Position numbers and translations under genes: made by a program. The notes beneath the pieces are model-generated. The model ran no database searches. It was not told the origin of the DNA and saw only the letters and a list, made by a program, of their open reading frames with translations. A stretch of 64,000 nt of DNA from Microgenomates group bacterium (GTDB lineage: Bacteria > Patescibacteriota > Microgenomatia > Daviesbacterales > UBA10151): positions 64,589 through 128,588 of the forward strand of contig JBAZXP010000001.1 in NCBI GenBank assembly GCA_041659805.1, read 5' to 3'. Below, in pieces: positions 3,068-22,659 of this stretch; the stretch's first letter is position 1; each line of letters begins with the position of its first letter.

Positions 3068-3202
3068 TTTTTCAAACCTTTCCTAGGAATATTTTTTTCC
3101 TGTCCAATCGCCCATTTTACTTAAATCTTCAATTTAATCCATTCTTCTTATGCAATCTTTAACTTTGAGGCTAATTTTGCATAGAAAAAATCTACTTATA
3201 TC

Positions 3203-3232
3203 TTGACAAATCTATGCAAATTCTGACACTAT
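3203..3232 (+). promoter_or_regulatory. weak sigma70-like promoter candidate upstream of the giant gene
   Basis: TTGACA at 3203-3208 followed at an 18-bp spacing by the poor -10 CACTAT. Lies in the 212-bp AT-rich intergenic region after atpC. Confidence 0.2.
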
Positions 3233-3279: not shown

Positions 3280-6200
3280 ATGAAAGACTTGCCCAATAAA
3301 CAAACAAAAAAATTCGTTAAAATCGGTGAAGCTTCAGTTAAACTCGGCGTCTCAATTGATACTCTCCGCAGATGGGAAAAGGCAGGTAAAATAGAGATAA
3401 CCAGAACACCAGGTGGTACCAGACTTTACTCAATTTCCACTATTTCAAAACTAACTGAAATACCTAAAAAATATCAAAGAAAAACTGTCGACTATCCAAG
3501 AGTTCCTGTTATTGAACCGGCAAAAATAAAGGTTACGACTGTTGAGGATCTTTTAAACTTAAGCCGACAGGAAACAGAAAAACATCGCCAGACACCGTCA
3601 ACTGATCAAAAATGGCAGGAGTATGTAGATGAAAGAACAGTTAATCCGGTTGAAGTAACTATTTTATCTGAATCAGAGCTACCACAGGCTGTGGCTGAAA
3701 ATCATTCATCAAAAGCCATCAAAACATCATTCCTAGGAAACAAAATTTACAAGTTAACAGCCACAGCTTTTACAGGAACATTAATCATGATAATTCTAGC
3801 TTTTTTAGTTTTAGCCAGAACTTCAAACTTTAATATCTTTAATACAGCTAAAAACAATCAACTCTCAACTGCAAGCCAATCATCATCTACCCTACCTTCT
3901 AATGTTTTGGCTACCTCTACCAGCGGCTGGTATCTGGATTTTGATTCAGATGTAATCATCGAAGGTGACTTGGCTGTTGGTGGAAGCATTAATAAACTAA
4001 CGCTCGCTCCTAATGCAGATGGCTTTAGCATTTCAGGTGGTGATACTGCCAACCGGAAAATGACTGTTATCGGCGGAGATGTAACCTTAGACCAGGATGT
4101 TTCAACAAACGGCTCTCCCAGTTTCCAGGCCTTAGATCTTCCGGCAACATCTAAGCAAATCACTATGGGTGGAGCAGGAACTTTAACATGGACACCCACA
4201 GGCACTCAAACAATTACTTTTCCAAACGCAACAGGCACAGTCCTGCTTGATTCAGCTACTCAAACTATAACAAACAAGACTATTTCCGGTGGGTCTAATA
4301 CTCTTTCTGCTATCCCCAATTCAGCTTTATCCAACAATAAAATTACAATCTCTGCAGGAACTAACCTTTCAGGCGGTGGTGATATTTCTTTAGGCAGTTC
4401 AGGAACTCTTTCTTTAGAGGATGATATTTCCCTGTCCACAGTAACTGCAACATCCTATCTATCTCTAGGTCAAACTAGTGCACCTTCAACCGCAACCGAT
4501 AAACTTTATAATATAGCAGGCTCACTTTACTGGAATGGAACGGATCTTTCTGCTTCTGGTGGCAGCGTTCCTTCAGTTAATGGCTTAATCGGAGCCTTAA
4601 CAATTGCAGGTGGTGGAATTAATTCTGTTTCAGCCCTCGGAACCACTATTACTATAACTGGTACAGAAGCAGATACTTTGGCCAGCGTGACTGCCAGAGG
4701 GGCTACCACAACTGATGCAGTTACATTCTCCTCCACTATTAACTCCAATACTTTTACTTCCACTGCTTTAACCTTTGCAGGTGCTTCCCCTGCCATCTCT
4801 GCTTCCACCGGCGGAACAAGTATTTTTCTTGACGCCGGAACAAGTGGTAAAGTAGTAATCGCCGGAACATCTACAGGGGACGTTGATATTGCCGGCGGAT
4901 CTGGAACCACTGGTTGTACTATTGTTAATGCCACCGGAGATTTGAGCTGTTCCGGAAACATCAGTGGTGGTTCTACAGGAACTGCTGGTTTCTGGGGTAG
5001 GGCTGGTACTACTTTATCTCCAGCAACGGCGGGAGACAACATTACTACAACTGGAGCAATTTCCACAACCGGCACTGGCACTTTATCAATTGCTGGTGCA
5101 GCAACTTTTTCTTCCACTATCAACAGCAATACTTTTACATCCACTGCCCTAACTTTTGCCGGTACCACTCCTATCGTTTCTGCTTCAACTGCAGCTACTG
5201 ATATTTCCTTAAATCCAGGAGCTGGTGGAAATGTACAACTTGCTGGAGGATCTGCTTCATTTGGATGTACAATAAATGACACCACAGGTGATTTAACTTG
5301 TACAGGAGCGATTGCCAGCGGAGGAACAGGAGTGGTTGGATACTGGCAAACAGATGGCGGGTCTCCGCCGACGCTCTCCCCGGCCACGACCGGAGGACAT
5401 ATTACCACTTCAGGTAATATGTATACCTCTGGCACAGGCACAATCACTTCAGGAGGATTACTTACCGGTCAGACCGGTTTAACCGTTTCTGGAGGTGCTA
5501 TTTCTTTAAATGCTTCTTCAAATTATGACACTAATATTAATACTGGTACTTCTACTGGAGCAATTTCTATTGGTAATTCTGCAGCTGGCGCAATATCAAT
5601 GCAATCAGGCGCAGCTTCAACTTTTGCTGCCCCAGCCAATACTGCCACAGCTTTTAGGTTTACTGATGGCACAAATGCATATCTTAACCTTGATACAAGG
5701 AATACTTTATCTGGAGTTTCAGCTTTAACGCTTTCTGCAGGAACCGCCCCAACAATTACATCTGCTTCTAATGCTGAATTTACCACTTTAACCACCACTC
5801 CCCCAACTATCACCTTAACTGGCACTACTCAAGTAACCTCCCAAATGGATTCCATTTTATTTAATGCCCCAACCATCACTGACTCTTCTGCCTTAACAGT
5901 TGATAAAGCTGCATCTGTATCTATTGCAGGCGCACCTGTCTCAGGAGCAACAGGATTAGTCACTCTCACTGACTCCTATGCGCTCAAGGTAAATACAGCT
6001 TCTGTTGATGGTGGAACAGGCACTGTTACAAATTCCTTTGGTATTTCTGTTGACGCACCAACCGGAGCTACTAATAATTATGCTGCCACTTTTAATGGAG
6101 GAAACGTGGGAATTGGAACTACTGCACCTACTGCCCTTCTTTCTGTAGGGGCAACTTCCCAATTCCAGGTTAATTCATCCGGAGCCATAGCTGCCTCAAC

Positions 6201-9200
6201 TGGAATTTCAAACTCTGGAGGTTACACCCAATCCGGAACAACTGCCAATACCTTCACAGGAACTTCTACTTTTTCCAATGCCACTTATTCAGCTTTCTTT
6301 ACAGGAGGTAATGTGGGAATTGGCACTACAGCTCCTATTGGAAGATTGGATGTAACTGATACTTCTAACACAGCTGCTTCCCTATCCTTAACCAATAATA
6401 CAGCTACCACTATTGGAAACGGTGCTAATACTCTGGGGGTAATCGATCTACAATCAACCTCCTTAACTACTGGTAACTTTTTAAATGTAGAACTCAATGC
6501 CTTATCTTCTGGTAAAGGTTTCAACCTAACTTCAACCTCTACCGCTCTTTCATCCGGCTCGCTTGCCTCTTTAGATTGGAGTCCAACAGGTTCTACCACA
6601 ATTTATGCAACAGGCGATCTTTTTAGTATCAATGCTGGCCAATATGGATCTGTTGGTAACTTTTTTAATATCAAAGATAACGGCACATCTGTTTTCTCTA
6701 TTTCCCAACAGGCTTTAACAACTAGCTTGCCAGCTGCTTTTAATGCTCCTGGTGATGTATCCATTGCCTATGATATTAATTTTACTAACCCCACAGCTTC
6801 CTACCTTAAATCTCAAGCCCCACTTTATATAACACCAGGAGAAATTTTTAATTCTTCTGATTTGGTCTTATCTACCTATAATCAAGGCAGCATCATTTTA
6901 AGCAAAGATTTTACATCAACAGCTGCTGTTACTAATTATTTATCCCAAATCAATGGTTCTGATGTAACAGCCATTGCTAATACCAATTATGGTCTGTATT
7001 CTTCAATCACCCACACAGGCAATGCTGCCAAAACTGGTGTTGGATTATATTCCACCCTTTCCACATCCTCAACCACAGCAGATACTTTAATAGCTTCTGA
7101 TTTAGCCACATCCACCTCTGGAATCATGACTACTGGCACCAGAAATATCTATGGTTTGAGATCTCAGCCTGCTTCAACTGGTGCCTCAACTGGAGGAACT
7201 ACCAATGTTTATGGAGGATATCTTAAATCAGGCGGAACAGTCGGAGTGGGCGGAACTATTAATTCTTACGGAATGTATATTGCTAACGGCACCATGAGTA
7301 CTACAGGACTTTCCACCAACACAGGCCTTTATGTCGAATCGCCTACTGGGGCAGATAACAACTATGCAGCTATTTTTGCTGGTGGAAATGTGGGAATAGG
7401 CACAACTGCTCCTGCTGCCCTCTTTTCTGTAGGTTCAACCTCTCAATTTCAGGTTTCTTCTGCTGGAGCAGTTACTGCTGTAGGATTAAATTCAGGCTCA
7501 GGATTATTACAGGGTACTGGTGGTTTAACCCTAACAGGCACAACGCTTTTGAATACCACTGGTACTGCTGCTACCAGTATTGGTAATTCCACAGGAATAC
7601 TAACTTTAGCCTCAGGTGGAACGTCTGCTTGGACAAATACTTCTGGAAACTTAACTATCTCCACAGCTACATCTGGAATTTTAGCCTTAACTTCTGCAGG
7701 AGCTTTGAACCTAACTTCTGGAGCGGCTTCCACCTGGACTCTACCTGCTACTACAGTTAATGCTTTGAATATTGGATCTAATTTATTAACTTTTGATACA
7801 CAAAACTCCAGAATTGGGATTGGGACCACTGCTCCAGGAGCCAATCTAGATGTAGCTGGCAATATTATGCTTTCAGATGGAAATAATGATGCAATTACAT
7901 TCAATAATAGTTATGTACAAATTTATAGGAATGCCAGTATGATGCAATTTAATGCTTATACAGGCTGGGCTTTTTATGATACCCAAGGCTCAGCTGAGAG
8001 AGTCAGAATAACTAATGCAGGTGATGTGGGTATCGGGATAACAGCACCTATAGAGGTATCTGCTGGCAGAACATATCTTTCAATAAAAGGATCTACTGGA
8101 GCTGGAGCTCTGGAATTGTCTACTGCTCAAGCTGATGCAGATGCTGTAACTAATGGAGTTATTCAATTTACTGATGTTAACTCAACAGCAACAGATAAGC
8201 GTACTGCAATAATCCAGTCTTATTTATCAGGAGCAACTGGAAATAATCGCGGAGGCAGATTAGTTTTCAAGACTAAACCTGATGGCGTAGATAGTTTACC
8301 TGACCGCCTTACGATAGAACAAAATGGGAATGTCGGAATTGGTACAACAGCCCCTGCTAGATCTTTGGAAACAACAGGATCAATCAGAATGGGACCATTG
8401 ATTACAGGTGGAGGCTCAGCTGTGGCTATGTACAGAGATGCCAATGGCGATTTGGCAGATTCAACCTCCAGTATTAAGTTTAAAACAGATCTTACAGCTT
8501 ACCCTTCTGTTTTAGAAAAAGTATTGCAACTTAATGCAGTTAACTTTAAATGGAACGAGCTTACTCCTACCCCAGGAGCAAATGATTTTGGAATGATTGC
8601 AGAACAGGTAAATACTATTATTCCTGATTTGGTAATTTATGATGCTGACGGTGTAACACCCCACGGATTAAAGTATGACAAAATGGGGTTTGTTGCCTTA
8701 AAAGCTATCCAGGAACTAAATACTAAAGTTAACAGTTTTAATCTGACATTTGATGAAAATGGCAATGTCATTCTACCTAAAGTTAAAATCGACCAATTAG
8801 TTCTTTCGTCTGATATTCCTGTAAACGGCCAACAACAAAATTATTTCGATGTGGCTGGTAAAATAGCCGAACAAAATGCGGCACTATCTACTCAATCTAC
8901 TGAACTTGCCAAAACACAGTCACAACTTGATGTATTATCTGCCTCTGTTTCTTCTGCTTCAGCCAATCTATCTTCTGCTTCTGCAGAAATTGCTTCAGCC
9001 AGAGAACAAATTTCCTCCACCTCAAGTAGTCTTGCTTCCTTAAGAGAGGAGATCGAAGGATTAAAGCTAACTCCTCCGGAAGTTTTGCTCTCAACAGTCT
9101 CTGCTCAATTAACTGATCTTAATGTCACATCTGAGGCTACCTTCTCAGGAAAACTAACAGCTTATGAAGCAACCATATCTGATACTTTTAAATCTCTGGG

Positions 9201-9627
9201 CAATTCATTCCTGGGTAACACCACTATAGCAGGTGACTTCTCTATTGACGGAACATTATCTCTAACAGGTAGTTCCTTAAGTACAATTGATACCTTATAT
9301 GTTCAAAATAAACCTCTGGCAGGAGATGTTGATTTCTTTAATGGACAAGTCATAATTGATAAAACGGGTAAATTAACTGCTCAAAAAATAGTCTTACCTT
9401 CTGAAGTATTAGGTGAAGCAACTATTCCTGCTAATACCGTAGAAATACCTATCTTCACTACAGCTGTAACAGGTAAATCAAAGATATTCTTAACACCAAG
9501 CTCCTCTACTGGTGGTCAGGCTGTTATCCTTGGAGAAGTCCTCCCTGGTACAGGATTTGTGGCTAAACTAGATCACAGTATAAGTGCAGACATTAAACTT
9601 AATTGGGTAATATTTGATCAACAATAA
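3280..9627 (+). CDS. giant (2115 aa) membrane-anchored surface fibre protein. Domains in order: N-terminal MerR/excisionase-type HTH, single TM helix, Ser/Thr/Gly-rich tail-fibre-like repeats (GNVGIGTTAP motif repeated about 6 times), C-terminal intramolecular chaperone (Peptidase S74) domain, coiled coil.
   Basis: N-terminus KIGEASVKLGVSIDTLRRWEKAGKI is a HTH_17/MerR-like DNA-binding motif. A hydrophobic helix TGTLIMIILAFLVLA lies about 160 aa in. The GGNVGIGTTAP..L.VG motif recurs. The C-terminus SIKFKTDLTAYPSVLEKVLQLNAVNFKW...GMIAEQV..IIPDLV matches the endosialidase-chaperone/S74 consensus. A Ser/Ala-rich coiled coil (LSSASAEIASAREQISS) follows. Confidence 0.75.
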   Translation: MKDLPNKQTKKFVKIGEASVKLGVSIDTLRRWEKAGKIEITRTPGGTRLYSISTISKLTEIPKKYQRKTVDYPRVPVIEPAKIKVTTVEDLLNLSRQETEKHRQTPSTDQKWQEYVDERTVNPVEVTILSESELPQAVAENHSSKAIKTSFLGNKIYKLTATAFTGTLIMIILAFLVLARTSNFNIFNTAKNNQLSTASQSSSTLPSNVLATSTSGWYLDFDSDVIIEGDLAVGGSINKLTLAPNADGFSISGGDTANRKMTVIGGDVTLDQDVSTNGSPSFQALDLPATSKQITMGGAGTLTWTPTGTQTITFPNATGTVLLDSATQTITNKTISGGSNTLSAIPNSALSNNKITISAGTNLSGGGDISLGSSGTLSLEDDISLSTVTATSYLSLGQTSAPSTATDKLYNIAGSLYWNGTDLSASGGSVPSVNGLIGALTIAGGGINSVSALGTTITITGTEADTLASVTARGATTTDAVTFSSTINSNTFTSTALTFAGASPAISASTGGTSIFLDAGTSGKVVIAGTSTGDVDIAGGSGTTGCTIVNATGDLSCSGNISGGSTGTAGFWGRAGTTLSPATAGDNITTTGAISTTGTGTLSIAGAATFSSTINSNTFTSTALTFAGTTPIVSASTAATDISLNPGAGGNVQLAGGSASFGCTINDTTGDLTCTGAIASGGTGVVGYWQTDGGSPPTLSPATTGGHITTSGNMYTSGTGTITSGGLLTGQTGLTVSGGAISLNASSNYDTNINTGTSTGAISIGNSAAGAISMQSGAASTFAAPANTATAFRFTDGTNAYLNLDTRNTLSGVSALTLSAGTAPTITSASNAEFTTLTTTPPTITLTGTTQVTSQMDSILFNAPTITDSSALTVDKAASVSIAGAPVSGATGLVTLTDSYALKVNTASVDGGTGTVTNSFGISVDAPTGATNNYAATFNGGNVGIGTTAPTALLSVGATSQFQVNSSGAIAASTGISNSGGYTQSGTTANTFTGTSTFSNATYSAFFTGGNVGIGTTAPIGRLDVTDTSNTAASLSLTNNTATTIGNGANTLGVIDLQSTSLTTGNFLNVELNALSSGKGFNLTSTSTALSSGSLASLDWSPTGSTTIYATGDLFSINAGQYGSVGNFFNIKDNGTSVFSISQQALTTSLPAAFNAPGDVSIAYDINFTNPTASYLKSQAPLYITPGEIFNSSDLVLSTYNQGSIILSKDFTSTAAVTNYLSQINGSDVTAIANTNYGLYSSITHTGNAAKTGVGLYSTLSTSSTTADTLIASDLATSTSGIMTTGTRNIYGLRSQPASTGASTGGTTNVYGGYLKSGGTVGVGGTINSYGMYIANGTMSTTGLSTNTGLYVESPTGADNNYAAIFAGGNVGIGTTAPAALFSVGSTSQFQVSSAGAVTAVGLNSGSGLLQGTGGLTLTGTTLLNTTGTAATSIGNSTGILTLASGGTSAWTNTSGNLTISTATSGILALTSAGALNLTSGAASTWTLPATTVNALNIGSNLLTFDTQNSRIGIGTTAPGANLDVAGNIMLSDGNNDAITFNNSYVQIYRNASMMQFNAYTGWAFYDTQGSAERVRITNAGDVGIGITAPIEVSAGRTYLSIKGSTGAGALELSTAQADADAVTNGVIQFTDVNSTATDKRTAIIQSYLSGATGNNRGGRLVFKTKPDGVDSLPDRLTIEQNGNVGIGTTAPARSLETTGSIRMGPLITGGGSAVAMYRDANGDLADSTSSIKFKTDLTAYPSVLEKVLQLNAVNFKWNELTPTPGANDFGMIAEQVNTIIPDLVIYDADGVTPHGLKYDKMGFVALKAIQELNTKVNSFNLTFDENGNVILPKVKIDQLVLSSDIPVNGQQQNYFDVAGKIAEQNAALSTQSTELAKTQSQLDVLSASVSSASANLSSASAEIASAREQISSTSSSLASLREEIEGLKLTPPEVLLSTVSAQLTDLNVTSEATFSGKLTAYEATISDTFKSLGNSFLGNTTIAGDFSIDGTLSLTGSSLSTIDTLYVQNKPLAGDVDFFNGQVIIDKTGKLTAQKIVLPSEVLGEATIPANTVEIPIFTTAVTGKSKIFLTPSSSTGGQAVILGEVLPGTGFVAKLDHSISADIKLNWVIFDQQ

Positions 9628-9666
9628 TTTATTGTGATGAAAATTGATAATTATATTTTTTATCTT

Positions 9667-10016
9667 GCGTCTTTGGTGGCAAAGACGCCCAAAGCCACTT
9701 TGACGGGAAGTCGCGCTAAATTCTGTGGCTCACTAGCCGGGGGAAAGCCTCCCCCTCACAATTTCTTTGTGGCATCCCCCTGGCAGTTTCGCCTTGAATT
9801 CTTAACGCGCTTGTTCCTAGTCAAAGAACGAATAGAAGTTTATATATTTTTATTGCCCGCTTGGAATGAAAAGCGTAAAAATCGAACCAAGCCAATATTA
9901 GGGGGAGGTCCGAACCCTTTCGGAGGGGGCAAACTTTCCCCCGATAAATTGGCGAGGAGAGATTAGCTTTTCTTCCGTGGGCAGAGTTTTACCACGCTTT
10001 TGCGGTCAAAAGCGTG
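9667..10016. other. GC-rich structured intergenic element bracketed by two related perfect hairpins (9667-9688: GCGTCTTTG-GTGG-CAAAGACGC; 9993-10016: CACGCTTTTG-CGGT-CAAAAGCGTG). Several internal GGGGG/CCCCC stem-loops. Candidate ncRNA, or MITE-like element and terminator.
   Basis: Palindromes read directly from the sequence. Local GC is much higher than the flanks. The 110-aa ORF called here (9634..9966) has no protein-like composition. Confidence 0.4.
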
Positions 10017-10041
10017 AACAATAAAAATTGAGCTTTAAAAA

Positions 10042-13000
10042 TTGAAAATTATGAGTAAATTAAACAAAAATTTTAGAATAAAGAAAAAACTCTTTTTTAC
10101 TATTTTAGCCCTTTGTATAGGGATAATTGCCTTCTGGAAATTTAGTAATCCTGCTGTTGCTTCCTGGTGGGATGATAATTGGGCTTTTAGAAAATCCATT
10201 GCTATTACTGCCCATACTGCCTCTGAGAATAATGTATATATTAATTTAACAGGGGCAAACGATTTAGATACCTCTGATACCACCAGATTTCAAACTGATT
10301 GTGGAGATTTAAGATTTACCAAGGAGAATGGAGAATTACTCCCCTATTATGTTGTTTCAGGCTGTGGCACAGCTTCTACTGTAGTCCATGTTAATTTTGA
10401 TACTTTCCCAGCAGGAGCACAAACAATCTATGTTTATTATGGTAACTCCTCTGCTGCTGATGGTTTTAATTTAACTGATTTTTCTACAGAAGCTTCCAAC
10501 TACACTATTGGTTCCCAGGGCTCTGAAGAAAAAACACCTGGGATTATTGCTTATTGGCAATTTGATGAAGGACAAGGTATTTCTGTTAAGGACTCCTCTC
10601 CTAATTCTGCTAATGCCACGCTTGCCGCAGGAGACGGAACTGCACCTACAGGTACGACTAATCCTACTTATAATAGTTCTACAGGCGCTCCTGATACGGG
10701 AGATGGGGCTGACGGAGCTTGTACTGTTTCCTCTGATACCAATATCAACACAGCTTCTTGTGCTGGCAGAGGCACAGCTGATGCTATTAATTTTTCTTCT
10801 ACTGTTGATACCAGTGCAGCTTCTACCTCTATCAAACTCTCTGCAACATCCACAGGTTTAGCTGTCGGCGATGAGATATTAATTATTAACTTAAAAGGAA
10901 CTGCAGCAGTTCCTTCAGATGCAGGAGAATTTGAAACTAAAACTATTACTTCAATTACTACTACCACTAATCCGGATGACACTTTAAACTTTGCCAGTGG
11001 TTTAACAAATGCTTATGCAGGCACCACCCAAAAAATTATGGTTCAGAGGGTTCCAAATTATACAACTGTCACAGTCAATAGTGGCCAAACTATGACTGCA
11101 GCTGCCTTTGATGGGACAAAAAACGGGGTAATCTTTTTTAGGGCAACCGGAGCAGTAACTGTCACAGGTTCTATCAGTATGAGCGGTAAGGGCTTTACTG
11201 GTGGAGCAGCTCAAACTGCACATGTTAGTAAAGGTGGCAATGGCGGTACAACCTATAATGGCACTGGTGGAAACGGTGGAAATGCAGCCGTGAATGGTAC
11301 GAGTGGTCAAGGAGGTGGTGGAGGTGCAGGTGCTTTATGCCAGGCATCCGATAAAAACGGCTGTTACCAATGGGCTACCGGAGGAACTGGTACAACTGGA
11401 GGCGCAGGAGGTGGTGGTGGAGGCCATTATTCTGCTGCAGGGGGTGGAGGTGGATATGGAACAATCGGCACTGGAGGAGGCAGTTATGATGGAAATTATA
11501 ACGGCTCCCCAGGATCAGGCACTACTGGTGGTAATGGTGCCAGCTCTAATAGTAATAATATCGCTGGTGGTGGAGGTGGAGGTGGTACTTATGGAACTGC
11601 TACTTTAAGTACCTTATTTATGGGAAGTGGAGGCGCTAGCGGTGCAACTTATAGTCAAGCTGGCGATAGTGGCGCAGGAGGAGCTGGAGGCGGAATTATC
11701 TCAATTAACGGTGCAACTATAACAATAACAGGGAGTGTTGTCAGTAATGGTGCTGCTGGAGGTAATGGGGTTAATGATAATGCTTCCGGTGGTGGTGGCG
11801 CCGGTGGTTCAGTTGCTATTAATGGTTTGACAATTGCCTTAGGCTCATCTCTAGTGACAGCTACAGGAGGTGGAGGTGGGACTGTCTGGACTACAGGAGG
11901 AGCTGGAGGAGATGGACGAATAGCAGTTGGCTCTGGCGGTAATAGTCCTACCTGGAAATCAGAGGAATGGTGTATTTCGGGCAAGTGTCTATTTTTTGAT
12001 GGTACATCCTCAAATATTAAAGTTGCAAATGCTATAAATGGAATCCAAACAATCTCTATGTGGGTTAAACCCACTTCCCTCACCACTGGCGCCTTAATTG
12101 ATCTTGACGGCGGTACACATAAAATAACCTTTTCCAATGGAACTCTTTCTACCTCTGGCTTTACCGGTACTACAACCTTTTATGTTAATGGTAAAGTCTC
12201 CTCCACTTTAACCATTGATACCTGGCAATATGTTACAGTAACCACAACGAATGGTTTCAACAGCACTTCCTCTCTAACAATTGCTAAATCAAGCTCAACT
12301 TATTTACAGGGTTTTATTGATGATGTCAAAATATATAACTATGCCAAGACTGCAGCTCAAATTGCTACTGACTTACAAAAAGTTCAATCAAATATGGGTT
12401 CTGGCGAAGTTTTGGGTAACAAGCTAATTGATCCTCTATCTACAGGTTTGCTTGGTTATTGGAAAATGGATGAACTATCAGGCACAACCACAGTTTCAGA
12501 TTCTTACAGAAGCCACACAGGAACCTCTACTTCCAGCACCAATGTCACAACAGGCAAATTTGGCAATGCCAGAAGCTTTAATGGCAGCCAATATATTTCT
12601 GTTACTCACAACTCCAGTTTAAGCCCGTCTGCTATCACCATCTCTGCCTGGGTTTATACCACTTCCCAACCAGGAGTCGGCACCTCATATCAGTTTGTGG
12701 AAAAAAGCGCAAATGACAGTTACCGTTACAGGGTTAATGCCGGAGGAACTATTGGTGTATTTGATCAGGGCTGTGGTATTAGCTGTCTATCTTCACCCGG
12801 TAATATTCCATTAAATCAATGGAATCATGTAGTCTATACAGGTGACTCAACGGGCTTAAAAATGTATCTGAACGGTTCTTTGGTTGCCAGTAATTCTACA
12901 GCTTATAGTGGTGGGGCTGCCAACACCAATAATTTATTAATTGGGGGCTCTTATTTTGGCACTGCTGAGTATATGATTGGGAACATTGATGAGGTCAGGC

Positions 13001-15891
13001 TTTATAACAGATCTCTTTCTGCCACAGAAGTAACAGCCCTTTATAACTGGACACCACAGGCAAATGAAGCCCCAGGACCAGTGGGAGCCTGGGATTTTGA
13101 GGAAGCTACCGGAACAACACTTATTGATAACTCAACCAATGGTTATAACGGAACATGGTCAGGCACAGCCAGCCACTACACAACAGGAAAATATGGCAAG
13201 GCAGGTAATTTTAATAGCGCCACGGTCGACTATGTCGATATGGGTGATGTTTTAGATGCAAACACAACAAACAAAATTACTCTTGAGGCTTGGATAAAAA
13301 CGCCCTCTCCAACAGATAATTTTCCAATGATTGTTACAAAATCTGGGGCTTCTGATAACGGATACGAATTCCGTTTTAATTCTACAAACGGAAAACTCCA
13401 GGTTATATATGGAGGAACTACACCAACTAATTTAGTTGGTAATACCGTCTTAGCTGCAAATACTTGGTATCATGTTACAACTACCTATGATGGAGTAACT
13501 GCTAAAATTTATCTTAACGGTGTTTTAGATAATTCAGTGGCTATGACTGGAACTATTACTGCCAATACTGAACATTTACTTATCGGAGCTCGATATGAAA
13601 GCGGTACTCCAGCATATTTTTATACAGGTCAAATTGATGCTGTCAGAATTTATGATTATGCCAGGTCCGCTAGCCAGATTGTTTCTGATATGAATGCAGG
13701 GCATCCTGCTGTTGGCTCCCCTATTGGATCTGCTGTGGGATATTGGAAATTTGATGAAGGGGCAGATAATAGATGCTCTGCTGGAGTAAATGATGCTTGT
13801 AATTCAGGTTCAGGAGGCAATGCTTTAGATGGAGCAGAATCTAACATGGCTGTTCCTGCAACAACTGCATCAGGCTGGACTAATTCAGGTAAATTCAATA
13901 AAGCAATGATTTTTGATGGATCAGATGATCAAATCCAAATTACTGAAACAGCTCCCCTTCGATTTACAACCTCTACTCCTTATTCTTTCTCCTCTTGGGT
14001 CAAACTGGATTCTATCCCTGCTGCAAATGGCTATGAAATTATTGGTAATCGTGCTTGTGCGGTCAGGACTGCCATTTTTGTAAATACTGCCGGTAAAATT
14101 GACTTTAATATCGATGCCACATCCGGAGGAAGTACTGACCCTCTTTCTACAACAGTGCTAACAACAGGTGCCTGGTATCATATTGTCGGTACTTATGACG
14201 GGACAACAGCAAAAGTTTATGTTAATGGAAAACAGGAAGGGTCTCAAGCTATACAGGGCTCAGGAAATATTTATGCAGGTAACCCTTATTTTATTGGCGG
14301 CAGTACTTATACTTGTGGAACGTCCCAAAACTGGCATCTTGATGGCACTATTGATGAGGTTAAAATTTATAATTATGCCTTAACTGCTGATGAGGTTAAG
14401 GCAGATTTTAACAGAGGTCAAAGTCTACAGTTAGGTGGTGGTGGGAATAATTCCACTTATCAACCACAAGCTGCTAATCAGGAATATTGTGTACCTGGGG
14501 ATACCACCTCCTGTGCTGCTCCTGTGGGAGAATGGAAAATGGAAGAAGGCACAGGTCAAACTACTGCTGACACATCTAGTAATGGAAATACCGGAACTTT
14601 TGGAGTTAACTCTGGAGTTAGCACTGATGATCCCATCTGGGCCAAAGGTAAAATTGGCAAAGCTACAAGTTTTGACGGAAGCAATGATTATATTAGTGTC
14701 GCTCATAGTTCTAACCTGACGCCAACAGGAGATTATACATTACAAGCCTGGATCAAAACTTCCTCTACAAACAACCATCAACCAGTTATAGCAAAATTCA
14801 ACGCAACTAATCCTTATCCAGGATATATCTTATCAATTGGTGATTATGCCTCAGCTACTGGCAAAGTGTCACTTTGGGTTGGTGATTGGGCTAGCAGCTA
14901 TTTTAATGGTAATACCTCTGTAAATGATGGCAACTGGCACCATATCGTAGGGGTTTTAAATGGTACAGCAGTCAGAATCTATGTTGATGGAAAACTTGAT
15001 AATAGCGGGACCAGAAGCCCTTCAAGGGCTAATACCCAGGGTTTAACTATTGGCACCAGATATGATAATGGTGGTGTCCTTCCCTGGTTTTTTAACGGTT
15101 CAATAGATCAGGTTCGTGTTTATAATTATGCCAGAACAGCTGCTCAGATAGCCTGGGATTATAATAAAGGCAAGCCTATTGGACATTGGAAACTTGATGA
15201 ATGCCAAGGAAATCAGGCATATGATTCCTCAGGAAATTCTAATACTGGAACCATTACCATTGGAGCTTCTGGAGAAAACACTTTAGGCACCTGCTCTATC
15301 TCTTCCACTGCCTGGGGAGACGGGGCAACAGGCAAAAGAAATGCTTCTTTAAAATTTGACGGAACAGATGATATTTTAAGCGTTGCTTCAATGCCACTGG
15401 CCTGGACTTCTACCACCCCCTTTTCTTATGGAGGCTGGATGAAATTTGCCAATACCACCACAGGTTACATACTCTCATCAAGTGTTTCTCCTGGAGCAGG
15501 AAACCTCTTAACAGACATCAACAAAGATGCATATACTTCAGGTAGGGTAACTTTTGAGGTAGGTAAATCAGGAACAGGTTTTACCCATATAGAGTCTTCA
15601 ATCCCTTATGTCACAGGCTCTTGGGAACACTATTTTGTTACCTATAACGGTGCTAATAATATGAAATTATACCGTAACGGAATTCAAGTTTCCTCTGGCA
15701 CGTATACAAACGGCTCCGCAGCTAGTAACGGTAACGGCTTTTATATGATGTATGCCAATAATTCTACAAACTATGTAAATGGCCAACTGGATGATGTTAA
15801 AGTATTTAATTATGCCCTCACAGCTACCCAGGTCAAGGATATCTACAATGGTGGAGCCATTTTCTACGGCCCAACCACAGGCAGCCCTTAA
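10042..15891 (+). CDS. giant (1949 aa) secreted/anchored protein. Domains in order: signal-anchor, DUF2341-like N-terminal domain (WWDDNWAFRK..I.I), Gly-rich region, six tandem LamG_3 (concanavalin A-like lectin) domains.
   Basis: N-terminal hydrophobic segment. The WW..W.(F/Y)RK..I motif is characteristic of DUF2341. Long GGxGG tracts. Six repeats end in the LamG_3 signature (IDEVRLYNRSLSATEV, IDAVRIYDYARSASQI, IDEVKIYNYALTADEV, IDQVRVYNYARTAAQI, LDDVKVFNYALTATQV, IDDVKIYNYAKTAAQI), each preceded by FDG.DD.I.V and W.H(V/I)..TYDG blocks. A TTG start at 10042 or an ATG at 10051 are both possible. Confidence 0.75.
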   Translation: MKIMSKLNKNFRIKKKLFFTILALCIGIIAFWKFSNPAVASWWDDNWAFRKSIAITAHTASENNVYINLTGANDLDTSDTTRFQTDCGDLRFTKENGELLPYYVVSGCGTASTVVHVNFDTFPAGAQTIYVYYGNSSAADGFNLTDFSTEASNYTIGSQGSEEKTPGIIAYWQFDEGQGISVKDSSPNSANATLAAGDGTAPTGTTNPTYNSSTGAPDTGDGADGACTVSSDTNINTASCAGRGTADAINFSSTVDTSAASTSIKLSATSTGLAVGDEILIINLKGTAAVPSDAGEFETKTITSITTTTNPDDTLNFASGLTNAYAGTTQKIMVQRVPNYTTVTVNSGQTMTAAAFDGTKNGVIFFRATGAVTVTGSISMSGKGFTGGAAQTAHVSKGGNGGTTYNGTGGNGGNAAVNGTSGQGGGGGAGALCQASDKNGCYQWATGGTGTTGGAGGGGGGHYSAAGGGGGYGTIGTGGGSYDGNYNGSPGSGTTGGNGASSNSNNIAGGGGGGGTYGTATLSTLFMGSGGASGATYSQAGDSGAGGAGGGIISINGATITITGSVVSNGAAGGNGVNDNASGGGGAGGSVAINGLTIALGSSLVTATGGGGGTVWTTGGAGGDGRIAVGSGGNSPTWKSEEWCISGKCLFFDGTSSNIKVANAINGIQTISMWVKPTSLTTGALIDLDGGTHKITFSNGTLSTSGFTGTTTFYVNGKVSSTLTIDTWQYVTVTTTNGFNSTSSLTIAKSSSTYLQGFIDDVKIYNYAKTAAQIATDLQKVQSNMGSGEVLGNKLIDPLSTGLLGYWKMDELSGTTTVSDSYRSHTGTSTSSTNVTTGKFGNARSFNGSQYISVTHNSSLSPSAITISAWVYTTSQPGVGTSYQFVEKSANDSYRYRVNAGGTIGVFDQGCGISCLSSPGNIPLNQWNHVVYTGDSTGLKMYLNGSLVASNSTAYSGGAANTNNLLIGGSYFGTAEYMIGNIDEVRLYNRSLSATEVTALYNWTPQANEAPGPVGAWDFEEATGTTLIDNSTNGYNGTWSGTASHYTTGKYGKAGNFNSATVDYVDMGDVLDANTTNKITLEAWIKTPSPTDNFPMIVTKSGASDNGYEFRFNSTNGKLQVIYGGTTPTNLVGNTVLAANTWYHVTTTYDGVTAKIYLNGVLDNSVAMTGTITANTEHLLIGARYESGTPAYFYTGQIDAVRIYDYARSASQIVSDMNAGHPAVGSPIGSAVGYWKFDEGADNRCSAGVNDACNSGSGGNALDGAESNMAVPATTASGWTNSGKFNKAMIFDGSDDQIQITETAPLRFTTSTPYSFSSWVKLDSIPAANGYEIIGNRACAVRTAIFVNTAGKIDFNIDATSGGSTDPLSTTVLTTGAWYHIVGTYDGTTAKVYVNGKQEGSQAIQGSGNIYAGNPYFIGGSTYTCGTSQNWHLDGTIDEVKIYNYALTADEVKADFNRGQSLQLGGGGNNSTYQPQAANQEYCVPGDTTSCAAPVGEWKMEEGTGQTTADTSSNGNTGTFGVNSGVSTDDPIWAKGKIGKATSFDGSNDYISVAHSSNLTPTGDYTLQAWIKTSSTNNHQPVIAKFNATNPYPGYILSIGDYASATGKVSLWVGDWASSYFNGNTSVNDGNWHHIVGVLNGTAVRIYVDGKLDNSGTRSPSRANTQGLTIGTRYDNGGVLPWFFNGSIDQVRVYNYARTAAQIAWDYNKGKPIGHWKLDECQGNQAYDSSGNSNTGTITIGASGENTLGTCSISSTAWGDGATGKRNASLKFDGTDDILSVASMPLAWTSTTPFSYGGWMKFANTTTGYILSSSVSPGAGNLLTDINKDAYTSGRVTFEVGKSGTGFTHIESSIPYVTGSWEHYFVTYNGANNMKLYRNGIQVSSGTYTNGSAASNGNGFYMMYANNSTNYVNGQLDDVKVFNYALTATQVKDIYNGGAIFYGPTTGSP

Positions 15892-15892
15892 T

Positions 15893-16558
15893 ATGAATAA
15901 AGACCAGGAAGAAGTTATTAAAGCAGCTATTGCCCAAACCATGAGGGAACTTACTGCTCCTAAAAAACCCTTACAAGGGTCACGGGTTTGGAAAGACCCT
16001 GAAGGTTATCAATACTTGGCTGTCTGGCAAAATGCTGCCCTCTTAAGGGTTCTTATCCGTAAATTTACCCTTAATCTTACCCTTAACCACCCTTTTGAAA
16101 AACGCTTAAAAGCCCAGCTGGATGATGCAGCCAGATCTCAAAAAAGAAACATCGAAGAAGGCTGGAAAAGACCAACCACCTCTGAATATCTAAATTTCTT
16201 AGGCTTTGCCCAGGGCTCTTTGGAAGAAGTTAAGGGTGATGTTAGGGACGCCAAAACAGATGGGTTTTTAAGGGTAAAAGAAGGGTCGTGTTTAAAAGAT
16301 TTAGGGATAGACTTAACTATCTATAAGGGAGCTGCTAAGGGAATGGCCAAGGGTGAGCCCACAGATCCAGGTCACCCTTACTACCAACCCTTATCTACCC
16401 TTAATCCCAAAACCCTTACCTATGAGATGTTTATGGAGCTAATAAATAAAACAGATTATTTACTAAGATCTCTGGTTCAGTCTTTGGAAAAGAAACTAAG
16501 AGAAGATCAAAAAGGCTACAAAATAGAACAGGAAAGAATCAAAGAAAAATTTAAATAA
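15893..16558 (+). CDS. four-helix-bundle protein of the 23S rRNA intervening-sequence protein family
   Basis: NIEEGWKRPTTSEYLNFLGFAQGSLEEVKGDVRDAKTDGFL matches the conserved NIAEG..R.s..e...FL.iA.GSl.E core of IVS proteins. ATG at 15893 lies just after the upstream stop. The ORF-track start at 15779 overlaps the giant gene and is unlikely. Confidence 0.55.
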   Translation: MNKDQEEVIKAAIAQTMRELTAPKKPLQGSRVWKDPEGYQYLAVWQNAALLRVLIRKFTLNLTLNHPFEKRLKAQLDDAARSQKRNIEEGWKRPTTSEYLNFLGFAQGSLEEVKGDVRDAKTDGFLRVKEGSCLKDLGIDLTIYKGAAKGMAKGEPTDPGHPYYQPLSTLNPKTLTYEMFMELINKTDYLLRSLVQSLEKKLREDQKGYKIEQERIKEKFK

Positions 16559-19175: not shown

Positions 19176-19184
19176 TTATTAATC

Positions 19185-21110
19185 TTAGCTAAATTTGAGT
19201 GATGTGACAATAGAATCAAATTGTTTCATTAATTCAGTATTTACAGGATAAACCAGAATTTTTATAATTTTTTCTCCTTTAAACAGATAAAAAAGCATTT
19301 TCTCAACTTCCCCTTCCTTAAAGACCTTTACATATGCATAATCAAAATCTGGAATCTGTGCTAACCCCTGATTCACCAAATTACCATAACTTTCTGTTTG
19401 TGTTTTTAGATAATCTTCTGGAGATTTTTTATTATTTTTATCAAAAAGTAAAACCATTTCAAAGCTTTTATCTTCATTCATAATTCGCAAATCTAAATTC
19501 TTAAATCTCTCCTCAACACTCCAACTAAAGGGATAAGAAAAAGAAAATCCTAATGGAGAAACATAATTTTGTTTAGTTAAATTATCTAAAATTATTTTCC
19601 CTTCCCAAAAATTTGGATCTGCTTTAACTGCTAATTTATAATTTTCTATAGCTTTTTCTTTATCCCCTATTTGTTGATAAGTTCTGGCTTTTGAGGCAAT
19701 TGCCACAGCAAAATGTGGATTAATATCAAAAGCTTTTTGATAAGAGAAAATTGCTTTATCTATTTCTCCATTCGAAACATATGCTTCCCCTAACTGAAAA
19801 TATGCATAAGCATTATTGGGATTTGTTTGAATATCCTTTTGCCATAAAGTTATTGCATCTTTCCAATCCCCCACTCTTAAAAAAGTCACGACAAAAAACC
19901 CACCACAAACCAAAACCAAAATTGCTTTATAAAAAAATTGATTATTAATTTTTCCTAATAAATATGTTGCCACTAAAATCAAACCAAAAGACGGGGCATA
20001 TAAAAATTTCTCATGCATTAAAGACCACTGGGGAATAATATTTGAAACAGGAATTAAAGTAATGAAAAACCAACAACCACCAAAAGTAATAATTGGGTGT
20101 TTCCTAAAACTTTTCCAAATTATAAATCCCAAAAAGATTAAAGTAAAAAAAGCCAGTGAGAATTCCCAGTCAAAAATACTTTGGGAAGTTATTGGTTGCA
20201 GGGAATGTCCTCTATATAAAATAGCCTCTATTCCCCTTGGAATAATGTGATTATGCGTTAAATTTATTGGCAAAATCGTTAAAGTAAGATACTCAAATAA
20301 AACTTTAACTCCTGCCAAAAATGTTGAAAAAATACTGCCGTTTAAATATTCTCCTCTACCTACTCCATTAGTTACAATTTGCCTGATCAAAAAAAATCCT
20401 CCAGCTAAAATAAAATATGGCAAATATTTTTTCCAGGTTTTTTTAATACTATTTTTTGTAAAACACAAATCATAAAGAATAATTAAAAAAGGTAAAGTCA
20501 AAGTCATTTCATAGGTAAAAAAAGCTAATAGAGCAAACAGATAAGAACCAAATAGCGCGAGGGGTGGCGCGAAAGAGGGTTCCCATCGCCGCGCCCGCAG
20601 CGACAGCGAGGACGGACGATGGGATACTGGCGCGACAGGACCCCGAGTAAATAAGTAAAGATAAAATGATATTAAAAAGAAAACTATCCCAGTAGCTTCC
20701 ATACTTACTACTGTATAAGCTATAGTTTCTGTATGAATTGGATGTAATGCAAATAATAATCCCCCTGCAAAAGCCAAAGATTTTTTCTTTAAAATAATTT
20801 CCAGAATAAAATAAATTAAAGCTGTAGAAATTAAATGAATGAGTAATGCATGTAAGTGATATCCAAAGGGATTTGTTCCCCAAATGGAATAATAAAAAGC
20901 ATACAAAATACTTCTTATTGGTCTGTAGACTCCTTCATGCCCTGATGGCACAGCACCCTGAAAAAACTCCACAATATTAGATAAAGAATGTCCTTTTTCC
21001 CAAGCGATAATAAAAGTTTTATCATCTATCACAAATTGATTTTGAAATATATTAATGTAAGCAAAGATAGTAACTACAATAATAATTATTAGTGGTAAAT
21101 ATTTTTTCAT
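19185..21110 (-). CDS. TMTC/DUF1736-like polytopic membrane protein (putative protein O-mannosyltransferase family) with C-terminal TPR repeats. Contains a GC-rich in-frame insertion.
   Basis: 641 aa. N-terminus FQNQFVIDDKTFIIAWE...GVYRPIRSILYAFYYSIWGTNPFGYHLHALLIHL matches the TMTC N-terminal F..DD...I..N...YRP...S...Y..FG..P.GYH..N. block. TPR repeats (AYAYFQLGEAYVSNGEIDKAIFSYQKAFDINP). Paralog of the next gene. Confidence 0.6.
   Translation of the reverse strand: MKKYLPLIIIIVVTIFAYINIFQNQFVIDDKTFIIAWEKGHSLSNIVEFFQGAVPSGHEGVYRPIRSILYAFYYSIWGTNPFGYHLHALLIHLISTALIYFILEIILKKKSLAFAGGLLFALHPIHTETIAYTVVSMEATGIVFFLISFYLYLFTRGPVAPVSHRPSSLSLRARRWEPSFAPPLALFGSYLFALLAFFTYEMTLTLPFLIILYDLCFTKNSIKKTWKKYLPYFILAGGFFLIRQIVTNGVGRGEYLNGSIFSTFLAGVKVLFEYLTLTILPINLTHNHIIPRGIEAILYRGHSLQPITSQSIFDWEFSLAFFTLIFLGFIIWKSFRKHPIITFGGCWFFITLIPVSNIIPQWSLMHEKFLYAPSFGLILVATYLLGKINNQFFYKAILVLVCGGFFVVTFLRVGDWKDAITLWQKDIQTNPNNAYAYFQLGEAYVSNGEIDKAIFSYQKAFDINPHFAVAIASKARTYQQIGDKEKAIENYKLAVKADPNFWEGKIILDNLTKQNYVSPLGFSFSYPFSWSVEERFKNLDLRIMNEDKSFEMVLLFDKNNKKSPEDYLKTQTESYGNLVNQGLAQIPDFDYAYVKVFKEGEVEKMLFYLFKGEKIIKILVYPVNTELMKQFDSIVTSLKFS
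20554..20646. repeat. 93-bp GC-rich in-frame insertion inside the TMTC-like gene, absent from the tandem paralog
   Basis: Sequence gcgcgaggggtggcgcgaaagagggttcccatcgccgcgcccgcagcgacagcgaggacgg... encodes RGPVAPVSHRPSSLSLRARRWEPSFAPPLALFG. The flanking protein sequence aligns directly to the paralog (...AFFTYEMTLTLPFLIILYDLCF). It contains the palindrome CGCG-AGGGGTGG-CGCG. Confidence 0.6.
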
Positions 21111-22603: not shown

Positions 22604-22659
22604 CTCTTAAATCTTATTTCTTAAATCTTAAATCTGCTTTATTATTATATACTTAACAA

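Follow-up and report, generated by a model that had tools for sequence, protein, structure and literature searches.

Mosaic adhesive trimeric (MAT) fibres are surface-exposed, prey-recognising proteins with, in many cases, a self-cleaving S74 domain at the C-terminal end; they start with a signal peptide and a conserved ~130-residue β-rich domain thought to bind a surface element (PMC10769870). The eukaryotic transcription factor MYRF is membrane-bound and carries the ICA/S74 domain of phage tailspikes, in the order DNA-binding domain, S74, transmembrane (TM) helix; it is the only well-studied combination of this kind, and it illustrates that S74-driven trimerisation can control a transcription factor (PMC3742443, PMC8326128). 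Transmembrane transcription regulators have been catalogued on a large scale, one survey listing 50,302 of them, 56% single-pass, with MerR (386), MerR_1 (350) and HTH_17 (151) among their DNA-binding domains (PMC10269533). BldC lacks the coiled coil of MerR proteins; its multimers assemble cooperatively, head to tail, on direct repeats spaced by one helical turn (PMC5859096). Here we describe a gene in a 64-kb stretch of DNA from a Microgenomates group bacterium (the window; positions 64,589 to 128,588 of contig JBAZXP010000001.1), whose product joins a MerR/BldC-type helix-turn-helix (HTH) domain through a single predicted TM helix to a giant, S74-bearing fibre, together with a conserved element upstream of this gene and its relatives.

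In bacteria of the Candidate Phyla Radiation (CPR, or Patescibacteria), genomes are tiny and recognisable regulators few. Attachment to other cells is presumed to be the task of their surface appendages, about whose control, to our knowledge, next to nothing has been learnt. In the literature searched, we found no description of a MerR/BldC-type HTH linked via a TM helix to a giant S74-bearing fibre, nor of the ATCTATGCA array described below. An earlier note on this DNA had been aware of no description of the combination, which stands as far as that literature goes; the protein itself is already public under the name of a MerR regulator, and MerR-type transmembrane regulators are catalogued generically in the survey (PMC10269533).

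Results

A conserved repeat element precedes the HTH-giant genes

The new finding is a conserved TTGACA-ATCTATGCA element upstream of the genes that encode this HTH with a giant ectodomain (HTH-giant genes); before HTH genes it reads TTGACA-AATCTATG(C/T)AAAT. Both strands of 80 sampled genome loci (L numbers) and the window (WIN), 1.17 Mb altogether, were scanned; homologous proteins carry P numbers. With up to two mismatches, TTGACAAATCTATG[CT]AAA occurs 42 times in this sequence, and in all 42 cases an HTH gene follows on that strand after 35–150 nucleotides (nt). Clusters of at least three half-sites also number 42, all at or inside HTH genes, compared with 1–3 in shuffles, and the element stands before none of ~1000 other genes sampled. 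Words from CTTGACAAATCTATGCAAA are present in 26–30 of 42 upstream regions and in 0–1 of 154 control segments.

When promoters were anchored on TTGACA, copies of ATCTATG(C/T)A (ATCTATGCA) were seen at +7 in 40 of 44, at +17 in 26 and at +39/40 in 20, with an inverted copy at +58–61 in 18. Spacings within this array are 10, 22 and 22 bp, which would place the sites on one face of the helix; the +7 site falls within the promoter spacer and the +17 site overlaps the likely -10 hexamer. Metagenome contigs were also scanned starting from the motif, which gave 119 exact hits, at least 43 of them followed by an HTH of this type. Wherever further array sites accompanied a hit, an HTH gene or the end of the contig came next, while the remaining 18-mer hits are at about chance level, ~20 being copies of one unrelated recurrent sequence. 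There was no sign of a wider regulon: no non-HTH gene with a full array was found in the window, in the 1.17 Mb of loci or in the 119 motif-selected metagenome loci.

Within the window, the TTGACA box at 3203 belongs to an 18-mer, TTGACAAATCTATGYAAA, that occurs once in the 64 kb. The box is bracketed by a perfect 10-nt inverted repeat (TTTGCATAGA at 3176–3185 and TCTATGCAAA at 3211–3220; 100% complementary, with 25 nt between the arms), and the position of a further site, at 3146..3155, is peculiar to the subtype to which the window belongs (WIN, L001, L002, L031). Most homologous promoters have TACGAT at the 18-nt spacing at which the window has its putative -10 hexamer (Table 1). A consensus promoter scan did not call the window promoter, a miss that we ascribe to the weak -10 hexamer and the 18-nt spacer, and the assignment consequently draws on conservation.

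The most economical reading of these data, to which we give slightly better than even credence, is that an adhesive fibre is fused here to a DNA-binding module that is tethered to the membrane and autoregulatory. The HTH would most likely bind the phased ATCTATGCA repeats over the -35/-10 region and leader of its own promoter, and a membrane-anchored protein would thus feed back on its own transcription. Since the sites occupy the promoter spacer, the -10 hexamer and the early transcribed region, the feedback is probably repression, and its outcome would be that fibre numbers are kept in check.

The array could alternatively be a lineage-specific promoter or leader element, either a site for another regulator or sigma factor or an RNA element, conserved through orthology, with the HTH having its targets elsewhere. 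This fits with the fact that 31–35 of the 42 loci are positional orthologues, that seven of 13 small HTH-TM genes from Woesebacteria (see below) are without the element, and that a conserved leader word, GCAGACGGA, is left unexplained; the +39 and +61 sites could also pair into an 11-bp hairpin, which is mostly intact. However, this candidate hairpin carries six single-sided, pair-breaking changes and no compensatory one, and no Rfam family matches at the position of the array, which disfavours an RNA element over DNA sites; ATCTATGCA moreover recurs with helical phasing at the unpaired +7 and +17 positions. The element also accompanies the HTH into a different context and architecture, being found before ~5–6 of the 13 small Woesebacteria genes (e.g. 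L065, L067, L073, L075), which are not atp-linked, so its link to the HTH does not stem from positional orthology alone. Together with its absence before the ~1000 other genes, these observations make an HTH-independent element very unlikely in our view. For the autoregulatory reading, co-variation between HTH and operator is consistent, if weak: the promoters of two paralogues with a TLRNW recognition helix are without ATCTATGCA at +7.

The second leader word, GCAGACGGA, lies 10–30 nt before the start codon in ~23 of 42 leaders (e.g. L007, L011, L025, L036) and in 0–1 of 154 controls, and is missing from the window leader; in L201 it falls inside the annotated open reading frame (ORF), which suggests a mis-called start. 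Separately, three loci contain three tandem operator-like words, AAAATCTATGCA, with a 12-nt period inside the gene (L013 at 10343–10367, L017 at 10634–10658 and L030 at 10291–10325). These copies encode (K/Q)IYA repeats immediately ahead of the TM helix, and could be either a coding coincidence or an intragenic operator.

The HTH-TM-fibre fusion is a conserved chromosomal gene

Positions 3280..9627, a range that includes the stop, form a single uninterrupted frame of 2115 codons. An identical protein is present in NCBI as MFA5932492.1 and MFA6454170.1, with further copies in JGI, ENA and Logan assemblies; its NCBI title, on a 1.13-Mb contig, is 'MAG: MerR family DNA-binding transcriptional regulator [Microgenomates group bacterium]' (MAG, metagenome-assembled genome). 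The earlier note had read this stretch as one gene in the order HTH, TM helix, fibre, S74 domain and coiled coil, with ~60 N-terminal residues forming a DNA-binding HTH, one hydrophobic helix ~160 residues in, the HTH inside and the ectodomain outside, and a Ser/Thr/Gly-rich fibre with repeated GNVGIGTTAP motifs. As detailed below, the open frame, Pfam, hydropathy and AlphaFold bear out this architecture, and flanking charges support the orientation. The note had also raised the possibility that a small HTH gene was joined to a fibre gene in silico, through a frameshift, a missing stop or a chimeric assembly. A climb in GC content from 0.37 to 0.45 across the gene could be taken in that sense, but this shift follows the amino-acid composition of the encoded protein. 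With an identical protein in several databases, conserved sequence running continuously over HTH, linker, TM helix and fibre start, and the same fusion recurring in dozens of independent contigs, with more than 40 loci at species level, most of them from Daviesbacteria, and 112 representative clusters, the chance of such an artefact is negligible.

The first 291 residues, used as a query, found 19 proteins in Microgenomates, Daviesbacteria and other Patescibacteria. The majority are cut short at contig edges; they align through the HTH, a variable linker, the hydrophobic segment and a conserved ectodomain start. The full-length protein retrieved ~25 relatives of 2000–3300 residues with an N-terminal MerR domain, one being a paralogue in the same genome, and in nearly all of them a regular-expression and hydropathy survey located one TM segment 80–140 residues past the HTH. 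Scanning species-representative genomes gave ~45 loci with an HTH, a TM helix and a giant ectodomain, their complete genes encoding 1482–3440 residues and many open-ended ones more than 3700. An exhaustive profile search of 1.84 billion representatives extended the family to 112 clusters at E ≤ 1e-30, with members of up to 6844 residues.

Directly upstream of the gene, on the same strand, lies the F-ATPase operon atpFHAGDC in 31–35 of 42 loci, and the window is no exception (atpG, atpD and atpC). This synteny marks the HTH-giant gene as a positionally conserved chromosomal gene rather than as part of a prophage or mobile element. A phage tail-fibre gene was rejected on the same grounds, and the PHROGs match is confined to the HTH. 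Recurrent neighbours at the loci compared are limited to the atp genes and a tRNA-synthetase-like ORF, and we found no conserved protease or partner gene there.

The family is built from conserved ends (HTH-TM and a C-terminal module) and a variable middle. While the HTH is nearly invariant, ectodomains vary widely, with S74, Kelch, BNR or VCBS domains, and some fibre relatives start with an ordinary N-terminal signal-like segment instead of the HTH. Loci of Woesebacteria type (L052, L053, L062, L063, L065, L067, L071, L073, L075, L076, L078) encode small tail-anchored HTH-TM proteins of 150–342 residues. Besides the same invariant HTH and a conserved 'FGRKYER' motif, they have one TM helix and a long linker of low complexity, and they end in a conserved '(I/L)SP(I/V)P', which leaves only ~8–10 extracellular residues; one of them, L063, comes from a MAG labelled Aenigmatarchaeota. 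At L045 (5934–7085), a 384-residue 'mini' member has two HTHs, a TM helix and a ~200-residue ectodomain whose last ~70 residues are homologous to the terminal β-sandwich of the window protein, indicating that both conserved ends can exist without the fibre.

Other relatives carry a different N-terminus. The giant fibre proteins P0046, P0048 and P0052 (and P0043), of 2400–3300 residues, start with an excisionase-like HTH (..EAAxLTGYxxxYIxxLxRxGKLxAxKxGRxW..) that is followed by a linker of 100–250 residues and a TM helix, so the theme of a cytoplasmic Xis/MerR-type HTH, a TM helix and a giant fibre seems, from sequence, to recur with different HTHs. A paralogous subfamily (L200, a paralogue of P0034 of the window genome; L201, corresponding to P0027; and the P0023 locus) has the recognition helix 'SIDTLRNW(D/E)'. 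For P0034 the analysis drew on P0001, the same gene in another assembly. L200 contains two tandem HTHs, its ORF beginning at 2800, upstream of the annotated start, and at least two genomes have genes of this subfamily beside mreB, WecG and GT4 glycosyltransferase genes.

The earlier note had cast the fibre as the sensor of a ToxR/CadC-like regulator. Here, engagement, pulling, trimerisation or loss of the fibre would alter HTH activity by clustering or regulated intramembrane proteolysis, and contact with host or prey would be passed on to transcription of the gene itself and possibly of others. The HTH-TM-ectodomain architecture is suited to this, the operator array supports DNA binding, and with one to two tandem HTHs on an ectodomain that is probably trimeric, this binding would respond to the oligomeric state. 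MAT fibres are prey-recognition devices (PMC10769870), and single-pass proteins are common among the regulators in the survey (PMC10269533). However, the Woesebacteria homologues keep the HTH, the TM helix and, in part, the operator with virtually nothing outside the cell, so the HTH-TM module works without an ectodomain, which weakens a sensory role. The HTH also stays invariant across very different ectodomains, its own gene is the only candidate target in the 1.17 Mb and in the motif-first scan, no conserved protease gene is adjacent, and Pfam recognises no ligand-binding sensor domain. The fibre as sensor is thus not supported, and we consider a contact sensor distinctly unlikely; contact sensing in an episymbiotic lifestyle is speculation.

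A minimal winged HTH, predicted to be cytoplasmic

The N-terminal domain matches Pfam MerR (PF00376; residues 14–50, 43.5 bits, cut-off 28.2) and MerR_1 (residues 14–61, 29.8 bits, cut-off 21.6). An AlphaFold2 model built from a 16-sequence alignment shows residues 11–60 as a β-α-α-β-β-α fold with a predicted local distance difference test score (pLDDT) of 89–95, and 18–19 HTH columns are invariant among the N-terminal homologues. Foldseek ranks the BldC-DNA complexes 6ama and 6amk first (TM-score on the target 0.78–0.84, 0.80 for 6ama; root-mean-square deviation 1.2–2.0 Å; 31–33% identity), followed by RacA-DNA (5i44), CarH, mycobacteriophage Xis and TnrA/GlnR, with sequence searches in agreement. 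Judged by this model, residues 11–60 are a genuine DNA-binding fold. The model has no MerR-type coiled-coil dimerisation helix: past the fold there is only a short helix (52–58) and a 14-residue helix (88–101), followed by disorder (residues 106–151, pLDDT <50). The second of these helices bears a (S)TEELL-like family motif, TVEDLL here and STEELL in the family consensus. Pfam and NCBIfam scans of the protein found no effector-binding domain, and no curated NCBIfam model covers it; the IS607, BldC and HspR models match the HTH alone, far under their cut-offs.

Such a domain might also act as a structural anchor rather than a regulator, tethering the base of the fibre to the nucleoid or to a cytoplasmic protein in the manner of RacA or RodZ; the upstream array would then be a site for tethering the locus to the membrane, akin to transertion, or would serve another factor. 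In RodZ, a cytoplasmic Xre-type HTH at the N-terminus, which binds MreB rather than DNA, is followed by one TM helix and an extracytoplasmic domain; the RodZ-type domain is HTH_25. HTH_25 ranks second among the DNA-binding domains of 'TM regulators' in the table of the survey, so that an HTH with a TM helix need not mean regulation (PMC10269533). RacA-DNA is among the best structural matches, the 'RNW' paralogues have mreB as a neighbour in at least two genomes, the invariance of the HTH across paralogues and species fits a common structural partner, and the TEELL motif of the linker could bind a protein. Against this stands the location of the sites in the -35/-10 spacer, over the -10 hexamer and in the early leader, which is typical of transcriptional control and not of tethering in general. 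The window gene neighbours the atp operon and not mreB, and the RodZ HTH is of a different type. We find a structural anchor highly doubtful, and retain the autoregulatory module.

A 19-residue Kyte-Doolittle scan of the window protein gives one peak, at residues ~159–181, with nothing else above 1.6, and AlphaFold2 places the TM helix at residues 154–195. Four Lys/Arg residues lie in the 20 positions preceding this segment and one follows it. Across 58 family members, the 15-residue flanks of the hydrophobic segment contain on average 2.8 Lys/Arg before and 1.8 after; the count is higher before than after in 33 proteins, equal in 16 and lower in nine, and a Lys or Arg abuts the N-terminal side in nearly all. 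This charge bias supports an N-in/C-out topology. Signal-peptidase cleavage after the TM helix, which would split HTH-TM from the fibre, was considered and rejected, since the family has no conserved AxA-type motif and its hydrophobic stretches are long (median 29 uncharged residues).

A fibre-like ectodomain with a conserved C-terminal module

The ectodomain begins with a family-conserved segment (VLAT..YLDFDSDVIIEGDLAV) and is almost uncharged, residues 183–1700 consisting of 17% Thr, 14% Gly, 13% Ser and 11% Ala. Four GNVGIGTTAP modules start at residues 941, 1010, 1369 and ~1683 (nt 6097–6129, 6304–6336, 7381–7413 and ~8326–8355), and match solved fragments of Bdellovibrio MAT fibres (Bd2133, 8ond, E 2.5e-7; also 8oml, 8on4 and 8ojn, up to 2e-4). 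Peptidase_S74 (PF13884) is found at residues 1730–1785 with 33.4 bits (cut-off 22). Its motif, SSIKFK, which the earlier note had passed over, retains Ser1730 and Lys1735 but has Ser in place of the Asp of the canonical SDxxxK; homologues have SD(I/V/E)(R/N)(L/T)K here. Beyond the S74 domain, 330 residues follow as coiled coil and β domains.

Also beyond the earlier note is a conserved ~190-residue region after the coiled coil, which ends in a β-sandwich. More than 20 family members, among them some that lack S74, end in a conserved counterpart of the C-terminal ~295 residues. An AlphaFold monomer of the C-terminal 416 residues has a mean pLDDT of 55 and is poor save for the last ~75 residues, where the β-sandwich resembles pyocin or phage tip and lectin domains in Foldseek, a weak hint (E ~3e-3). 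Neither Pfam nor NCBIfam matched a YadA-type β-barrel anchor in the protein, whose C-terminus is a coiled coil with a soluble β-sandwich. We infer that the C-terminal module may be the nucleus for folding and trimerisation.

Ten members without S74 (P0022, P0023, P0025, P0026, P0029-P0031, P0033, P0036, P0044) share another conserved block ahead of the coiled coil ('..VSxENGPIxxGDYLTSSSxPGVAMKATxPGxVxGKALE..FxNxxxADP'), which may be an alternative autoprocessing module. Pfam matches of Hint/intein type occur in the relatives P0037 and P0049.

Table 1 Features of the HTH-TM-fibre gene and its promoter in the window
Feature	Position	Strand	Basis
Operator-like half-site TCTTATGCAA (variant TTATGCA; core as in ATCTATGCA)	3146..3155	+	Repeat and upstream comparison
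Inverted operator half-site TTTGCATAGA, at -25 from the -35 box	3176..3185	-	Inverted-repeat scan, promoter alignment
-35-like hexamer TTGACA, part of the conserved 18-mer TTGACAAATCTATGYAAA	3203..3208	+	Conservation
Putative operator site O1 (AATCTATGCAAAT), directly 3' of the -35 box, in the promoter spacer	3209..3221	+	k-mers, anchored alignment
Putative -10 hexamer CACTAT, 18-nt spacer (inferred only)	3227..3232	+	Read from sequence
HTH-TM-fibre protein gene, 2115 aa	3280..9627	+	ORF scan, identical database proteins
Minimal MerR/BldC/Xis-type winged HTH, predicted cytoplasmic, aa 11–60	3310..3459	+	Pfam, AlphaFold2, Foldseek, conserved columns
Predicted cytoplasmic linker, mostly disordered, aa 61–153	3460..3738	+	AlphaFold2, family consensus
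Predicted single TM helix/signal anchor, N-in, aa 159–181	3754..3822	+	Hydropathy, AlphaFold2, flanking charges
Predicted extracytoplasmic Thr/Gly/Ser/Ala-rich fibre, aa 182–1729 (~1550 aa)	3823..8466	+	Composition, MAT-fibre matches
Peptidase_S74 intramolecular chaperone/autoprotease domain, aa 1730–1785	8467..8634	+	Pfam, motif alignment
Family-conserved C-terminal module (coiled coil, β-rich region, terminal β-sandwich), aa 1821–2115	8740..9624	+	Family alignment, AlphaFold
Coiled coil, long helix, aa ~1858–1927	8851-9060	+	AlphaFold, domain scan
Terminal β-sandwich, aa ~2042–2115, pLDDT 84–95	9403-9624	+	AlphaFold

Genomic setting

The next gene downstream is a second giant gene (10042–15891, + strand), encoding a 1949-residue LamG-repeat protein with seven Laminin_G_3 domains, one DUF2341 and no HTH; its NCBIfam matches, to the TafC fimbrial protein and the AgmC gliding protein, are both sub-threshold. 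Between the two giant genes, a GC-rich, non-coding stretch of ~400 nt (9640–10035, + strand) folds with a minimum free energy of -145.9 kcal/mol (z = -6.07; none of 100 shuffles folded equally well) and matches no Rfam family. A listed 110-residue ORF within it is probably spurious, and the stretch partially matches L060 8895–9066 (72% over 177 nt), ~700 nt upstream of the HTH-giant gene of that locus. It may be an undescribed structured RNA.

Directly after both Ser/Thr-rich giant genes, 16551–24459 encodes a TMEM260-like protein O-mannosyltransferase with TPR repeats (874 residues), two further paralogous TPR membrane proteins (repeats D3, D5, D6) and a YfhO-like protein, and is a candidate glycosylation system for the two giant proteins. 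The adjoining ORF at 15779–16558 (+ strand) has a 23S_rRNA_IVP/bAvd-like four-helix-bundle domain, as does an ORF upstream of the P0023 gene. It prompted us to consider targeting of the giant genes by a diversity-generating retroelement, which was rejected as the window contains no reverse transcriptase and no template/variable repeats.

Elsewhere in the window, 25669–26847 (- strand) encodes a type IV pilin-like protein with an N-terminal methylation motif, fused to a Laminin_G_3 domain, and 47160–52412 is a tandem duplication of a two-gene unit whose larger genes (538 and 547 residues) have TSP_1 thrombospondin type-1 repeats, a domain known mostly from eukaryotes. The rRNA genes are unlinked, with 5S at 27631–27747, 23S at 30629–34429 and 16S at 42234–43625; the 23S gene spans 3.8 kb with a group I intron (32117–32376), and the 16S match covers only ~1390 nt. 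Unlinked rRNA genes and a group I intron in the 23S gene are typical of CPR genomes.

Discussion

Our analysis suggests that the product of this gene is a giant bitopic (N-in/C-out) surface fibre, in which the HTH would be held at the cytoplasmic face of the membrane by a flexible linker of ~90 residues and the TM helix. The ectodomain would be a phage-tail-fibre-like, probably trimeric adhesive fibre resembling the prey-recognition MAT fibres of Bdellovibrio, folded from its C-terminal S74/coiled-coil chaperone module.

Several points weigh against the autoregulatory module that we favour. The HTH and the motif are connected only by co-occurrence; most promoters sampled are positional orthologues, so that 42 of 42 does not stand for 42 independent events; and more of the small Woesebacteria genes are without the element than have it. 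Co-variation rests on two promoters, and the window promoter itself has only the +7 site, the inverted copy at -25 and the upstream variant, the +17, +39 and +61 sites being missing. The motif scans covered loci and contigs rather than whole genomes, and speak neither for nor against a larger regulon. As for the sign of regulation, we guess it from where the sites lie. A trimer would present three HTHs to arrays of one to four sites, which leaves the stoichiometry ambiguous, and cleavage at the S74 domain is uncertain given SS in place of SD and the 330 residues that follow.

In a more far-reaching version, which we consider unlikely, the fibre would be a structural organelle of the surface with a transcription factor of its own on the other side of the membrane, through which the cell would count intact fibres. 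One to two HTHs per fibre chain, or three to six per trimer, would bind the phased ATCTATGCA array; loss, shedding or pull-out of fibres at host contact would remove or proteolytically free the HTH and reset transcription. Binding would also hold the atp-fibre locus at the membrane, where co-translational export of the product of this 6–20-kb gene could be favoured, and the Woesebacteria proteins without an ectodomain would represent the ancestral module. Such fibre counting would, if true, be a previously undescribed principle of regulation, specific to Microgenomates-type CPR bacteria.

In dozens of Daviesbacteria species, the HTH-giant gene is a conserved core gene adjoining the ATP synthase operon, and its family has more than 100 diverged clusters. 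Its product physically links a DNA-binding domain and a giant adhesin-like fibre, and the candidate operator is both precise and conserved. What would otherwise be a giant hypothetical protein becomes a testable circuit of a 50-residue domain and a 9-bp word, for which no culture is needed. The annotation can also be corrected, since the name of these proteins varies between sources: 'tail fiber domain-containing protein', 'MerR family transcriptional regulator' and, for the homologue P0023 in JGI, 'trimeric autotransporter adhesin'.

Comparison with known systems

Like ToxR, CadC and TcpP, the window protein is predicted to have a cytoplasmic DNA-binding domain, a single TM helix and an extracytoplasmic C-terminal part, and it contains in one chain what generically defines a transmembrane regulator, a predicted DNA-binding domain and at least one TM region. 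As in these regulators, the domain would have to reach DNA from the membrane. The ToxR/CadC assignment made in the earlier note holds in the sense of a probable transcriptional role, given the repeat array in its own promoter and the predicted N-in topology, but not in the sense of family. ToxR and CadC have an OmpR/PhoB-type domain, whereas the winged HTH here is of the minimal MerR/BldC type, and Pfam finds no Trans_reg_C match in the window protein. That class has a compact ligand sensor in place of a 1900-residue structural fibre with an S74 chaperone, and differs also in that the window protein has its own promoter as its only predicted target. The terms 'Peptidase_S74' and 'Patescibacteria' are absent from the text and supplements of the survey of transmembrane regulators, as far as these are accessible (PMC10269533). 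If true, our reading would extend such regulators to a MerR/BldC-type domain on a structural organelle.

Canonical MerR proteins have a coiled coil, an effector domain and a palindromic operator in a 19–20-bp spacer; here, direct repeats are predicted in and after an ~18-nt spacer. BldC from Streptomyces, the best structural match, is likewise a minimal winged HTH without the coiled-coil dimerisation helix, and the predicted +7 and +17 sites are direct repeats 10 bp apart, in keeping with the binding mode of BldC. BldC differs in being a soluble protein of 68 residues and not the N-terminus of a 2115-residue membrane protein, and in its repeat word (AATTnnnnC, compared with ATCTATGCA); the NCBIfam model HTH_BldC (NF033787) scores 25.9 bits on the window protein, failing its cut-off of 77. 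The nearest sequence relatives outside CPR are the N-terminal HTHs of IS607-family serine recombinases (49–53% identity over ~63 residues), which also give the best partial match in NCBIfam and PHROG (NCBIfam 28.3, cut-off 110), but those proteins lack a TM helix, and their HTH is followed by the catalytic domain of a serine recombinase. RacA of B. subtilis similarly uses a MerR-like winged HTH to tether DNA to a membrane-associated site at the cell pole, but is soluble and has a coiled coil; neither RacA nor RodZ has a fibre ectodomain or a conserved array of sites in its own promoter.

For the ectodomain, the closest parallels are the MAT fibres Bd2133 and Bd3182 of Bdellovibrio bacteriovorus, with which the window protein shares a long fibre of β-helix modules with the GNVGIGT-type capping motif (E 2.5e-7 to 3.2e-6), an S74 domain near the C-terminus and the plan of a conserved anchoring end with a variable body. 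Its matches to MAT-fibre structures in the PDB are confined to the module region, and in place of a signal peptide and the ~130-residue domain it has a predicted cytoplasmic HTH and TM anchor. The C-terminal module is conserved in the window family and variable in MAT fibres, the S74 motif is SSxxxK instead of SDxxxK, and the host is a monoderm-type CPR bacterium as opposed to a diderm predator.

In MYRF, finally, a single chain likewise holds a DNA-binding domain, a TM helix and a triple-β-helix/S74 autoprotease that drives trimerisation. Its DNA-binding domain is Ndt80-like, not MerR-like, and lies with S74 in the cytosol, where autocleavage frees it. In the window protein, the order HTH (14–50), TM (159–181), S74 (1730–1785) puts the S74 domain across the membrane, so that its cleavage cannot release the HTH. 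If our reading is true, the HTH-giant proteins would thus be a bacterial counterpart, of opposite topology, to the pairing of a DNA-binding domain with a phage-derived S74 domain in eukaryotic MYRF.

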